Assembly: GCA_046351595.1 (NCBI GenBank)
Contig: JAXLYE010000004.1
Span: 513,219-577,218, forward strand
DNA from: Polyangia bacterium
GTDB lineage: Bacteria; Myxococcota_A; Polyangia; Palsa-1104; JAEUJZ01
DNA length: 64,000 nt
Direction of reading: 5' to 3'
Positions within the stretch are counted from its first letter, which is position 1; every line of letters starts with the position of its first letter. Below the pieces are notes generated by a model. That model saw only the letters and a program-made list of their open reading frames with translations, made no database searches and was not told the origin of the DNA. This document shows, in pieces, positions 13,192 through 24,121 of the stretch. A program made the translations under genes and the position numbers.

Positions 13192-15313
13192 CTACCCGCT
13201 GCCGGCGGTTGTCCGCGCAGCCGCTGCTTGGACGCGCAGCGATCGGAGCTCGGTCACCCAGTCACAATCAGGCGGCATCGACATGCGGACGGAGCGCCCG
13301 GCCGGCCCGCCGAAGAACGCCGTCGCCAGGATCTGACCGAGCACAGAGCTGCTACCCGTGAAGCCCTGGCTCTCTCCGCGCACCCGCTCCTGCAGCAGAG
13401 GCTCCAGGTCCATCGGCTGCAGCGTGACGACCAGCAGGTACTCCAGCTGCGCTTCGGTCGGGCGCTGCCCGTCCGCACGTACGGGCAGCTCGCGCGGGAA
13501 GCGGACCCGGATCGGTCTCCCCTCTCCGAGCCCGATCCGTCCGCTGCCGTGCGCAGCCAGCGGAGCGCTTGCCCCGCGCGGCGGATAGACCTGCCGGATG
13601 CCGGCGGCCTGATCGATCTCAAGCACCGAGACGTAGACCTCGAGCCGCGAGCGGTTGGTGATCTCCAGAGCCAGCTGCGCACCGTCTGTGACGATCGGGA
13701 GCTCGGTCGGAGCCTTGTGCAGCGCAGTCGGGTCGCCCGATCCGGGCAGCAGGTAGATGGCGAGGTCGAGCTGTCCGCGCAGCGCGCTGCGTGGGTTGCA
13801 GAGGGTGCGGACAAAGTGCCTTCGCACCAGGCGCTCCAGGTTCTTCAGCACGCCCTGCGTCTGCACGCGGCGCAGCGGCGCGCCCCAGATCTCACCGCCG
13901 TCATCGACGATGAGGAAGCAGGTGTGATCCAGCGCGCCGAGCTGCGGGGCGATATCACCGGCTCGGATGTCCTGGCGGGCCGGGACCAGGTGCACACTCA
14001 AGCGCGGCGTCTCTTTACCCGCCACCAGCCGGAGCCAGGGAGAGCTCTGGATCCCGCTCAGCAGATCCTGCAGTTCATCACGGCTGCCCTTCTGCTGCGG
14101 GACCGCCTGCAGCTGCACGACGGCACCGCCCGCGCCGGTGTGATCATAGACCGCGACCGACCACTTCGTATCCAGCGGCTGCTCGGCGAGGACCGCGCGC
14201 CACAGCGGCTCGACCGGCCCGGCGTCGTGGATCAGGTGCGCCTGCGCGCGTGTCGCATCCGACGAGATCACCCGCACCCGGGGCCGCGCGCTCGCTTCCT
14301 CGGTGAGCTCCAGGTGCTGCGTGCCGGGCGGGAACAGCACCCATTCGCTGCTCACCACGACCCCGCGCGGCTTGCCTCCGCTCAGCCAGACCGTGCGCTC
14401 TGCGGTCACGCTCTCGACCAGGACATACGGTGCGATCTCGCGATCGCTCATGTCGAACAGCACCCGCTGCCGCGCGCCTTCGATCTGGGGGTGCTGGGTC
14501 GGGATCGCTCGAGTCACCGCGCAGGCGGCTCTCTCAAAGACGTCCTGGTAGGTCGATCCGGCGGGTGCGGACAGCAGGGCCTGCGCCAGCTCATACGTCA
14601 GCGCGCCGTGGTGGATCGTCTCTCCACCATCGAACACCGCGACCTCACGCGCCTTTTCCTTCGCCAGGCATGCACCGATGTATACGTAGTGATCGCTCGC
14701 GGGCAGCCACTCAGCCTGGCTCCCGAGCAGCGGCAGCAACTTCGGGTCGATCGGCGAGGCCGGTAGCTCGGAGAGCGCGCGCGGATCGGCCGGCAGCCCG
14801 CGCTCGCCGCTGAGCACCGGACCCGCCGAGCGGTGCATGGTGGCGGAGTGGCAGCAGTCAAATAGCAGCGTGATGAAGCGTGTCTTGTTCGCCAGCCGGA
14901 TCAGCCACAGCCGTAGCTCGTCATCGGTGATGTCGCGGTTCGGGTGCGCGCCGCGCCCGCTGTCGAACGGGATCAGCGTGTCATCGAGCTTCGGGTCCAG
15001 CTTGGTCCCCTCGCGGTCTGCCATCTGCGAGCCGTGGCCGGCGTAGAACAGGACCACGACATCATCCGGCGCGGTCCGCTCGACCAGCGCGTCCAGCTCA
15101 CGCAAGATCGCCGCGCGCGTCGCTGCCTCGTTGAGCAGGAGCGTCACGCTGGAGCGCGCAAAGCCGAACCGCTCGACGAGCAGCTGCTGGATGAGCCGTA
15201 CATCGTTCACGCAGCCGCGCAGATCGTGCGACTCCAGTACGTGCCCGCTGGCGTCTACGTGGCGCAGGAAGGGATAATTCTGGATTCCGATCAGCAGGGC
15301 GTGCCGGTTCATG
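13192..15313 (-). CDS. Caspase-like (peptidase C14 / metacaspase-type) domain protein with an uncharacterised C-terminal region of about 530 aa.
   Basis: N-terminal domain HALLIGIQNY...GCVNDV...DDVVVLFYAGHGSQ (catalytic His)...ITLLFDCCHSATM (catalytic Cys). ATG at 15313. Divergently oriented from the CHAT gene across a 235-bp intergenic region. Confidence 0.8.
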
Positions 15314-15548
15314 TCTGCTCCAGTGCGCGGGTCGTCAGGCCCAGGACCCGCCGGCCGCACGTACCCAATCAGTAACCTTATTCCGTCCCCCGTTACAGTG
15401 CCGCCACGGGGGGGAGACAGCGACCGGCCTGGGGTCCGGTGTGCAGCCACCTCGCGTCGACATCGCTCTGCATTGCGAGCGGACCGCCTGACGCTGCGGT
15501 GGCTGAGTGCGCGTGGCATGGTGATTGCTTTTTTGTCGCCAGACGTTC

Positions 15549-22191: not shown

Positions 22192-22525
22192 GCGCACGGG
22201 GCCTGACCGAGCTGCCTTTGGTCTGATTCAAGACTGCTTGCCCGTTCAACCGAAACCGCGCCCCTCCGTCCGGCGCCATGGGCACCTGCTGCAGGACTTC
22301 CGCAGGAGCGCCCAGTATGAATCCCTGGCCAAGAGGTTCGGCTCGGTAATAGAGCGCTACCGATCCGTAGCACGGGTGCTACCCAGCCGCGCTAGCGAGC
22401 AGCCCCGTTGCGAGAGCACCCCGACGGTAGCACCGCTTCCGTCGGCGCGCCGAGCGAACAGGTCCCCTGAAGGGCCGCCGCGGCACGGCACTTGCCATAA
22501 CCAGTTGGCAACCCGAGGAGCCACC

Positions 22526-24121
22526 ATGCCCGCCCGCCTGGACATCCTGATCACTGCCCCGTTTCCGCTCGGTGACGTGACCGCACAGCTGACGTTCCCC
22601 GACCAGAGCGTGCGTCGCGTCGTGTTACGCAGCGGCGCGCTCCAGACCGACCTGCCCGAGCTGCCCGAGCGCCTCCGGCTCCTCCACGCGCCAGCGCCTG
22701 AAGGTGAGGCCCCGCTCGCCGCGCCGTCCGAGGTCTTGCGTCCCGAGCAGCGGGAGCTCAGGGGCGATCTGGTCGAAGCCGAGGAGCTCTTCGAGCGCGG
22801 CATTCGCATTCCTGAAAGCGGCACCCTGCGCCTGCAGCTCATCTGGGGCGTGCACTGCCACCAGACCGTGACCGGCCCGTCGCTGGCGTCGAAGCTTGGT
22901 GGCGAGGTGGAGCGGCAAGCGCCGCGGTTCCTATCGGCCGAGCACGTGCGCTGTGCAGAGCGCGTCGGCATGGACGAATCGGGAATGAGGCCGCTCGCCG
23001 CCAACGGCAAGACGGCAACGTTCAACAGCAAGACCCTGCTCCCCATCGGCTCGCAGCGCGCGACCTTTGGCCAGATCATCGCGCTGGCCGGCGACTTCTA
23101 TGCGTACCTCGATGCGGCATCGCGCAAGAACAACGGCTCGGCGTGGCCCGAGGCGCCCGGCTGGGTGGAGTTCCTGGCGGGGGACTACCGCGAGCCGCCG
23201 CTCGTCGAGGACAGCTCCGCCGTCGTAAAGGACATCCTCGCCACGTTCCAGCATGAGCTCGAGCAGCTGATGCGCGGCGAGAAGCTCAGCGCGCTGCCTC
23301 AGCTCGTCGAAGGGAATCGGGTTACGGACTTCCCGGTGCGCCGCTACCTGGCGCTGGCCGGGATGAACTACTGCCACTTCGGCGCGCAGCCGCCCGACGG
23401 CAGCATCCAGGACGAGGTGAACGAGGCGTATCGCTCGTATCTCTACTATCACCGCCGTGCGCTGGCGCAGGCCGAGGTGGCGGGCATGTCGCTCGTCAAC
23501 CAGGAGGCCAAGTTCATCGAGGCGCTGGTGATCGAGGCCTTCGGCTGCCACTTCCTGACCGACCTGTTCGCGAGCGGGCACATTCGGGTGCCGCGCCGGG
23601 CTCTGGGAGAGCGCTTCGGGATCATGCGCGGCGGTCTGGGAATGGCGCACTCCATGCACGACGAGGACAACAAGCTCGGGCTGTGGTGCACGACGCGCGT
23701 GCCGCAGACGCCGCGCGTGGTGTGGCGCGCCTACGGCGACGCGATGCTGCTCAAGCCCGAGGCGGAGGCGCACCTGGCCATGATCCAGGAGGCGGTGCGG
23801 CGCTCGGCGGCCGAGGTGTTCCTGCGCTACTGCGGGGTCAGCGACGTCCCCGAGGCCGAGACCGGCGAGGCGCTGCTGCCGGTGGCGCTGGCCGCCGGCA
23901 CCGCGCCGCGCAGCGAGGACGTCCTCCCGTTCGACCTGGGGAGCCCGGACACAGAGCCTCCCAATCACTTTCCGCTGTATGCACTGGTCGATAGCGGAAA
24001 GCCGAAGCACCCGCTCATCGCCCGCCGGGCCGACGACAAGGCGCTCTACACGAACTCCTATTACGAGCAGGACGGAGACAGCGCGCGGCGCTTCTCGATC
24101 CCGCTCGCGGCGAAGCGCTGA
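22526..24121 (+). CDS. Zinc-dependent phospholipase C / S1-P1 nuclease-fold-like protein; putative effector.
   Basis: AGGAG RBS before ATG 22526. FGCHFLTDLFASGH reproduces the H-x3-D-x5-H zinc-ligand spacing of the PLC HYLGDxxxPxH motif. A downstream AHSMHDED resembles the second His/acidic ligand cluster. No signal peptide. Confidence 0.4.
   Translation: MPARLDILITAPFPLGDVTAQLTFPDQSVRRVVLRSGALQTDLPELPERLRLLHAPAPEGEAPLAAPSEVLRPEQRELRGDLVEAEELFERGIRIPESGTLRLQLIWGVHCHQTVTGPSLASKLGGEVERQAPRFLSAEHVRCAERVGMDESGMRPLAANGKTATFNSKTLLPIGSQRATFGQIIALAGDFYAYLDAASRKNNGSAWPEAPGWVEFLAGDYREPPLVEDSSAVVKDILATFQHELEQLMRGEKLSALPQLVEGNRVTDFPVRRYLALAGMNYCHFGAQPPDGSIQDEVNEAYRSYLYYHRRALAQAEVAGMSLVNQEAKFIEALVIEAFGCHFLTDLFASGHIRVPRRALGERFGIMRGGLGMAHSMHDEDNKLGLWCTTRVPQTPRVVWRAYGDAMLLKPEAEAHLAMIQEAVRRSAAEVFLRYCGVSDVPEAETGEALLPVALAAGTAPRSEDVLPFDLGSPDTEPPNHFPLYALVDSGKPKHPLIARRADDKALYTNSYYEQDGDSARRFSIPLAAKR

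Follow-up and report, generated by a model that had tools for sequence, protein, structure and literature searches.

A four-gene Polyangia locus encoding two caspase-fold proteases, a STAND NTPase and a candidate protease-activated zinc phosphodiesterase-like protein

The four-gene locus, its proteases and its STAND NTPase

The window analyzed here is a 64,000-nucleotide stretch of a Polyangia metagenome-assembled genome (MAG) with a G+C content of about 70%. It contains a cluster of four genes encoding a Peptidase_C14 protease (C14), a CHAT protease, an nSTAND1 NTPase with WD40 repeats (STAND) and a protein of an unannotated family, here called G4, which is identical to NCBI protein U1A78_20990 from a Polyangia bacterium MAG. 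We propose that the cluster is a STAND-controlled system in which a death effector, G4, is gated by proteolysis, a reading to which we assign a probability of about 0.6.

A first-pass annotation of this DNA listed open reading frames (ORFs) at 13192..15519 (-), 15525..17246 (+), 17233..22191 (+) and 22136..24121 (+). All four are present, and each reported motif was found: YAGHGSQ and FDCCHS in C14, HFSAHG and NACYS in CHAT, CPYLGLETFHEEDSGRFFGR, GPSGSGKSS and VVDQLEE in STAND, and HFLTDLFASGH in G4. The extent of STAND is retained, whereas the other three gene starts were refined from profiles of G+C content at third codon positions (GC3) and from identical database proteins. C14 begins at 15312 (MNRHALL) and has 706 residues, the same as database protein P0121; CHAT begins at 15549 (565 residues; P0241) and G4 at 22526 (531 residues; P0001). 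The translational coupling claimed for the CHAT and STAND genes stands, with an overlap of 14 nt. Since G4 starts at 22526, a gap of 335 bp follows the STAND stop codon and G4 is not translationally coupled to STAND. The features of the locus are as follows.

13192..15312, - strand: C14 metacaspase/orthocaspase-type protease, 706 aa
15313..15548, no strand: divergent intergenic region between C14 and CHAT, 236 bp (GC3 profile and database proteins)
15549..17246, + strand: CHAT protease, 565 aa (Pfam CHAT, PADLOC chat)
17233..22191, + strand: nSTAND1 NTPase-WD40, putative sensor, 1652 aa (Pfam nSTAND1, WD40)
22192..22525, no strand: spacer from STAND stop to G4 start, 335 bp (GC3 profile, 531-aa P0001)
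22526..22927, + strand: G4 prodomain, aa 1-134 (beta-sandwich and disordered linker)
22928..24121, + strand: G4 catalytic domain, aa 135-531 (helical; fold putatively of the zinc phosphodiesterase type)
24177..24422, + strand: frameshifted relic of a downstream C14 partner (blastn/tblastn; matches with L041 and L001_522)

C14 matches Pfam Peptidase_C14 (PF00656) at 1.9e-23, with 83.8 bits against a cut-off of 21.4, and PADLOC agrees with the assignment. The peptidase domain (aa 1-280) carries the His93-Cys154 catalytic dyad of the caspase-hemoglobinase fold, and the C-terminal part of the protein consists of beta-rich domains after a disordered loop (aa 157-167). C14 belongs to a family of ~690-aa proteins with beta-rich C-terminal domains that is widespread in Myxococcota, Cyanobacteria and Anaerolineae. 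Among proteins of solved structure, C14 is nearest in sequence to AtMC4 (6e-16) and yeast Yca1, and the motifs LRGCVNDV, SGHG and DxCHS are identical in all three; we therefore class C14, from these sequence features, as a metacaspase-type protease. The GCVND and DxCHS motifs take part in the S1 pocket of metacaspases. Metacaspases and orthocaspases cut after basic residues (PMC6426788). In the stretch that follows Cys154 (aa 157-178, ~14779-14844 on the - strand), Arg161 lies inside the disordered loop and Arg171 just past it. Both are invariant, which makes them plausible processing sites, and Asp176 and Arg178 are near-invariant. The loop resembles the autoprocessing linker of metacaspases, a likeness that hints that C14 may itself be a zymogen.

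The CHAT assignment is confirmed by Pfam PF12770 (6.8e-12, 45.9 bits against a cut-off of 24) and PADLOC chat (2.7e-11). The profile match is limited to the N-terminal 180 residues and to model positions 107-259 of 289. The protein has a compact domain (aa ~10-180) with His73 and Cys117, a Pro/Ser-rich linker and a helical C-terminal domain of ~340 residues. The N-terminal domain is a promiscuous, widespread module, fused elsewhere to TIR, EAD, AAA-like, TPR, receiver and other domains. The only full-length homolog is P0242 (36% identity) from locus L103, where the gene overlaps the following nSTAND1-WD40 gene by 14 nt, as in the window.

STAND matches Pfam nSTAND1 at 6.3e-95 (319 bits, model positions 1-377 of 379), with Walker A GPSGSGKS and Walker B VVDQLEE, and its WD40 repeats match Pfam WD40 at 2e-73 together with many other WD40/propeller models; both domain calls of the first-pass annotation hold. 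A helical N-domain (aa 1-125) precedes the NTPase (aa 131-502; 17623-18738), which is followed by a coiled region, the WD40 propellers (aa ~690-1345; 19300-21267) and a helical tail (aa ~1370-1652). A transmembrane helix is predicted at aa 601-623 (19033-19101; hydropathy 2.36), between NTPase and WD40, with charged residues on both sides. Because this is the only strongly hydrophobic segment, STAND is probably a single-pass membrane protein, and by this topology its WD40 part could be extracytoplasmic. The STAND of locus L008, 26% identical, has an equivalent hydrophobic helix at aa 434-458, and that of L103 is 37% identical over aa 1-1377 of the window protein.

The G4 fold and the Arg134-Phe135 junction

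G4 has no match in Pfam, PADLOC or NCBIfam. A search with a G4 profile against PDB sequences gave no relevant match, and G4 falls outside the sequence profiles of Zn_dep_PLPC (PF00882) and PF02265. About 110 close homologs (38-73% identity, ~500 aa) are all annotated as hypothetical. An AlphaFold (AF2) model built from 35 homologs has a mean predicted local distance difference test (pLDDT) score of 88 and a predicted template modeling (pTM) score of 0.88. It comprises a beta-sandwich (aa 1-106), a linker (aa 111-129) with pLDDT below 50 and a helical domain from ~aa 135. Invariant in the family alignment are F135, H140, D190, H284, H342-x3-D346-x5-H352, H378 and N382. Candidate zinc ligands are Phe135, His140, Asp190, His284, His342, Asp346, His352, His378 and Asn382 or Asp381, and they can be aligned with those of P1 nuclease in five rows.

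Row 1: P1 nuclease W1-x4-H6; G4 F135-x4-H140
Row 2: P1 nuclease SWAD45; G4 AGD190
Row 3: P1 nuclease SLH60F; G4 CH284F
Row 4: P1 nuclease H116FIGD120-x5-H126; G4 H342FLTD346-x5-H352
Row 5: P1 nuclease H149-x3-D153; G4 H378-x3-N382

Inter-ligand spacings are 58 residues in G4 against 56 in P1 nuclease, and 26 against 23. The ligand pattern of the superfamily was checked on PDB chains of P1 nuclease, S1 nuclease and Bacillus cereus phospholipase C (PLC). Based on the model, we regard G4 as a member of an unannotated family that appears remotely related, at the level of fold only, to zinc PLC and S1/P1 nucleases. The earlier call of a PLC/P1-nuclease-like protein agrees with the H-x3-D-x5-H spacing and the AF2 model; profile, hhalign and Foldseek comparisons gave no significant match.

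A profile search of 1.84 billion representative sequences retrieved 2,532 relatives of the catalytic domain at E<=1e-3. The catalytic-domain family comprises ~2,500 clusters at 50% identity and has no Pfam model; the prodomain is kept in only ~25 of the representatives. Four relatives (L016, L020, L026 and L031) are paralogs from one genome of a Rhabdochlamydiaceae symbiont with a Dictyostelium host. Forms with a signal peptide occur in Legionella (L022, L024) and Pseudobdellovibrionaceae. The Legionella proteins, which may or may not be the known PlcA, PlcB or PlcC, match no family model. A coral protein (Oculina patagonica) also belongs to the family, as do L025, P0111 and L078-L085, and some metagenome matches are split in an intron-like manner.

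The N-terminal 134 residues of G4 form a prodomain and a disordered linker that end at Arg134/Phe135-x4-His (the slash marks the junction discussed here), and in the AF2 model the junction lies just after the low-confidence linker. Of the ~104 close homologs with the motif, 101 have a basic residue before the motif Phe (97 Arg and 4 Lys) and 2 have Leu, within a consensus EGxR/FGSxEH. Mature chains of PLC, P1 and S1 nuclease in the PDB begin at the motif Trp. In these enzymes the alpha-amine and carbonyl of the N-terminal Trp bind zinc. Within the wider G4 family, six proteins begin exactly M1-[DE]-S-A-E-H6 and several begin Mxx(x)F. Among secreted relatives, the motif stands at the signal-peptide junction, MFFRYYILLFCLSFNAFA/FESYEH (...NAFA/FESYEH), or follows a brief propeptide whose last residue is Arg (...TDYHAR/FESFEH and ...STTSR/FASVEH). 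The basic residue before Phe is not kept in relatives from Chlamydiae and other lineages that have no protease partner. The conserved [RK]/F after a linker, the placement of the motif at mature N-termini and the basic specificity of metacaspases together point to a clan-CD protease that cuts after Arg134. We infer that G4 is a protease-activated zymogen, with Arg134 as the predicted residue on the N-terminal side of the cut.

Gene neighborhoods and the remnant of a downstream protease

To place the cluster among its relatives, we compiled 21 further loci with close G4 homologs from assemblies, GTDB genomes and JGI metagenomes, which gives ~22 loci including the window, some of them mutually related. 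In 20 of the 21, G4 has a C14 or CHAT gene no more than 400 bp away (the remaining contig stops at G4). Wherever downstream DNA is available (19 of 19 further loci), a same-strand protease follows G4 within ~0.9 kb, as a C14 protein of ~640-670 aa or a ~700-aa protein with a C-terminal CHAT domain. The gene order CHAT, nSTAND1-WD40, G4 recurs in L008 and L012 at 39-43% identity. L038 and L044 combine a window-like C14 (44-45% identity) with a window-like CHAT (40-44%) and G4, and in L009 a window-like C14 stands divergently next to G4. The genes of the cluster are therefore linked in related genomes and not scattered, and the census rules out chance adjacency.

Protease and effector are also found in one chain. 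P0366 (1777 aa) carries SLOG (LD_cluster3) and LCAT-like alpha/beta-hydrolase domains, a CHAT domain (aa 949-1217) and a full G4 with its prodomain (aa 1258-1767); by its domain composition it is a "Rosetta-stone" protein in which protease and effector are joined to a nucleotide-sensor domain. Conversely, L004, L007 and L044 hold G4-protease pairs with no STAND nearby, and L103 holds the CHAT-STAND core without G4, alongside a calcineurin-like phosphoesterase (Metallophos), which is a candidate effector, and a C25-like protein. A constant sensor core with a swappable effector is, by analogy, the pattern of conflict systems (PMC7159879).

Two further gene families recur in these neighborhoods. 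Proteins of 470-560 aa with a weakly Peptidase_C25-like C-terminus stand beside CHAT or CHAT-nSTAND1 genes (L002 2707-4377, L008 2568-3989, L050 ~2793-3953 and L103 8406-10004), a place taken in the window by the metacaspase-type C14. Ser/Thr kinase genes lie within a few kb of G4-protease modules (L004 7463-9505, L011 ~229-1065, L038 2774-4018 and L043 ~4361-4813); the kinase homolog of the window, at 43195-44064, is far from the cluster.

Of the 20 loci whose downstream DNA is available, only in the window is G4 not followed by an intact protease gene. Its closest relative is L041, where G4 is 73% identical. By blastn, window positions 24177-24332 match L041 2582-2738, inside the downstream C14 gene, at 71%. 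L001_522 also matches the window, at 24282-24422 (E 4e-5). By tblastn, the relic falls into fragments in two frames that match residues ~296-350 of the downstream C14 of L041. Relative to L041, ~860 bp are missing, including the whole C14 peptidase domain. The G4 ORF itself is intact and retains every conserved residue. With only a relic of the downstream C14, activation of G4 would need the upstream C14 or CHAT; alternatively, the system is losing its effector arm. Rewiring or partial decay of the locus is possible.

These observations bear on the main alternative to a single system, namely that two modules are juxtaposed. The first would be C14 with the CHAT-nSTAND1-WD40 unit, its proteases being the effectors; the second would be an orphaned G4 module, its own C14 deleted, in which G4 is non-functional or unregulated. 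The 335-bp spacer before G4 and the relic at 24177-24422 favor this view, as does the presence of G4's own downstream protease, within ~0.9 kb, wherever else downstream DNA is available. G4 is missing beside the closest CHAT-STAND pair (L103), the G4-protease pairs in L004, L007 and L044 have no STAND nearby, and caspase-like proteases can give defense alone, with no effector (PMC12642450). However, the recurrence of CHAT, nSTAND1-WD40 and G4 in order in L008 and L012, the association of window-like C14, CHAT and G4 in L038 and L044, the divergent C14 of L009 and the intact G4 ORF with all its conserved residues argue against it. We consider two juxtaposed modules unlikely, although this alternative survives better than the others considered below.

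Scans for control elements gave little. In the cluster, no sigma-70-like promoter sites were found and terminator-like sites did not exceed chance level. The three intergenic regions hold no convincing repeats, the spacer having one weak palindrome (22416-22463), and Rfam and tRNA scans of the window gave no match.

A proposed protease-gated effector and its relation to known systems

In the STAND-controlled system that we propose, G4 would be synthesized in an inactive, zymogen form. The WD40 propellers and the helical tail would sense a trigger that leads to NTP-dependent assembly of STAND, and the assembly would activate the co-translated CHAT and also, either directly or by way of a cascade, the putatively Arg/Lys-specific C14. 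CHAT, C14 or both, as clan-CD proteases, would then cut G4 after Arg134, possibly in a cascade like that of SAVED-CHAT and PCaspase; the Arg-bearing loop of C14 suggests such a step. The new N-terminal Phe135 would supply its alpha-amino and carbonyl groups as metal ligands, in the role of Trp1 in PLC and P1 nuclease, and complete a trinuclear zinc site. The active phosphodiesterase would destroy membrane phospholipid or nucleic acid, and the cell would be killed or arrested, as in abortive infection or programmed death.

The fuller statement, to which we give slightly less than even odds, joins several parts: that G4 represents an uncharacterized class of protease-licensed death effector, in which the cut creates the Phe135 metal ligand and removes no inhibitor; that STAND spans the membrane with its WD40 part perhaps in the periplasm; and that Legionella, Chlamydiae and predatory bacteria draw secreted effectors from the same family.

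STAND/caspase conflict systems were predicted by Kaur et al. 2020 (PMC7159879), and nSTAND1 was defined and named in Kaur et al. 2021 (PMC8195603). Like these systems, the locus combines nSTAND1 and a repeat sensor with caspase-superfamily peptidases as neighbors, a constant core with variable effectors and a multicellular host habit. In contrast to them, no EAD or Death-like adaptor was detected in the window proteins. EAD Pfam families match none of the four, and with no shared adaptor found by BLAST the cluster does not belong to the EAD-coupled class (PMC7159879).

Zymogen and pore effectors licensed by proteases have been shown experimentally for MBL, alpha/beta-hydrolase, Pepco, EACC1 and gasdermin proteins (PMC12642450). 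As in those modules, a protease gene is the near-obligate partner of the effector gene and is at times fused to it (20 of 21 loci and the P0366 fusion), the two are combined with various sensors, STAND NTPases among them, and the effector is predicted to lie dormant until its linker is cut at a specific site. The effector fold is different, apparently zinc PLC or S1/P1-like, and the proposed cut makes a catalytic N-terminal metal ligand, whereas no inhibitory segment is removed and no pore domain is released. A bacterial gasdermin system is rejected, as the G4 fold differs; a precomputed PF27061 Gasdermin_protease match of the downstream CHAT protein in L008 is the sole link to gasdermins. The idea of the first-pass annotation that sensor NTPase, protease and effector act together fits both the STAND/caspase conflict class (PMC7159879, PMC8195603) and the protease-effector modules (PMC12642450). 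The main texts of PMC7159879, PMC8195603 and PMC12642450, and the other open-access full texts searched, make no mention of a PLC/P1-like effector.

A third comparison is with the type III CRISPR cascade from SAVED-CHAT to PCaspase (bioRxiv 10.1101/2023.06.23.546230). Here too, CHAT shares a locus with a C14-type caspase, a hint that one of them activates the other, and the window C14 has invariant Arg residues in and next to the disordered loop after its catalytic Cys. In contrast, the window sensor is a STAND NTPase and not a SAVED domain that binds cyclic oligoadenylate, there is a dedicated downstream enzyme effector in G4, and the order of the window cascade is our proposal. Among enzymes, the comparators for G4 are B. 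cereus PLC, clostridial alpha-toxin, Listeria PlcB and the S1/P1 nucleases. G4 differs from these in having no detectable sequence-profile similarity, ~90 extra residues between the Asp and His ligands, Phe for Trp at position 1 and Asn/Asp for Glu/Asp as the last ligand. It is also cytoplasmic, with a 134-aa beta-sandwich prodomain, and its proposed activator is a clan-CD protease, not a secretion or maturation protease.

Several results weigh against the protease-gated, STAND-controlled reading. With Pfam at E<=10, only 2 of 35 G4 homologs reach Zn_dep_PLPC, at E 0.12. Comparison of shallow and deep G4 profiles with B. cereus PLC by hhalign gives no signal, a Foldseek search of the G4 model against the PDB gives no significant match, and the ligand mapping to P1 nuclease and PLC is one of motif order and spacing, not of structural superposition. 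In many distant G4 relatives the motif lies 50-100 residues from the N-terminus with no known processing. At the locus, only a relic of the cognate downstream protease gene is left, and STAND and G4 are 335 bp apart. BLAST finds no shared EAD-type adaptor between the STAND N-terminus and either C14 or the CHAT C-terminus, nSTAND1 lies within 10 kb of G4 in only 9 of 22 loci, and no phage or mobile-element context was found that would speak for defense. Defense or cell death is the presumed function of the locus.

The biological role could differ with the mechanism unchanged. In a multicellular myxobacterium, the cluster may act in kin discrimination or in cell death of a developmental or social kind, triggered by an extracytoplasmic signal through a periplasmic WD40 part and not by phage. 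The Polyangia host, the STAND transmembrane helix between NTPase and WD40 that is conserved in L008, the enrichment of such systems in multicellular prokaryotes (PMC7159879) and the lack of a detected mobile-element or phage association agree with this. However, a periplasmic place for the WD40 part is tentative, the protease-effector modules characterized so far are anti-phage (PMC12642450), and a retron-type reverse transcriptase and a STAND-like cyclase within 12 kb suggest a defense-rich neighborhood. We think a developmental or social role unlikely as well.

The reverse transcriptase (457-2160, +) has a ~240-aa N-terminal extension and matches Pfam RVT_1 at 1.3e-17. Its matches to the NCBIfam retron models St85, Ec67 and TIR-retron (1e-59 to 1e-64) are all under the curated cut-offs, and Rfam detects no retron RNA in the window. 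The cyclase (1361 aa; 3121-7206, -), a further large NTPase with a signaling role, combines adenylate/guanylate cyclase and AAA_16 (STAND-like) ATPase parts in one chain; it lies 6 kb from the cluster and is adjoined by a V4R/XylR_N protein (2165-3124, -). GC3 is 0.83-0.88 in the four cluster genes against 0.93-0.96 in most flanking genes, a difference that would fit an island acquired by horizontal transfer or evolving fast. Neither tRNA genes nor repeats were found flanking the cluster, and G4 has no match in phage genomes and a single distant hypothetical protein in plasmids.

A last alternative, that G4 is not proteolytically activated and acts as a constitutively folded accessory enzyme or scaffold (e.g., a lipid- or nucleotide-signal phosphodiesterase) with a structural or catalytic Arg-Phe, draws on the compact AF2 model of the uncleaved protein (pTM 0.88) and the internal motif of many distant relatives, but is improbable given that the basic residue is kept only in the protease-linked clade, that the junction follows a disordered linker, that in relatives starting at M1 or after a signal peptide the motif coincides exactly with the mature N-terminus, where the mature chains of PLC and P1 nuclease also begin, and that a CHAT-G4 fusion exists.

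The overall logic of a STAND-controlled, protease-gated G4, in which a protease unleashes a killer protein, is known; what would be new is the effector class and the proposed activation chemistry. Effectors gated by proteolysis, such as gasdermin, the MBL nuclease, Pepco and EACC1, are emerging as a dominant logic of bacterial immunity that parallels animal caspase pathways, and G4 would add an effector class outside all curated families. The proposed switch is chemically explicit, as the cut would create a metal-ligating N-terminus. The analysis also flags a large unannotated enzyme family with members in intracellular pathogens, symbionts and corals. A transmembrane STAND sensor, if true, would be relevant to the way in which bacterial NLR-like proteins sense signals from beyond the cytoplasm.

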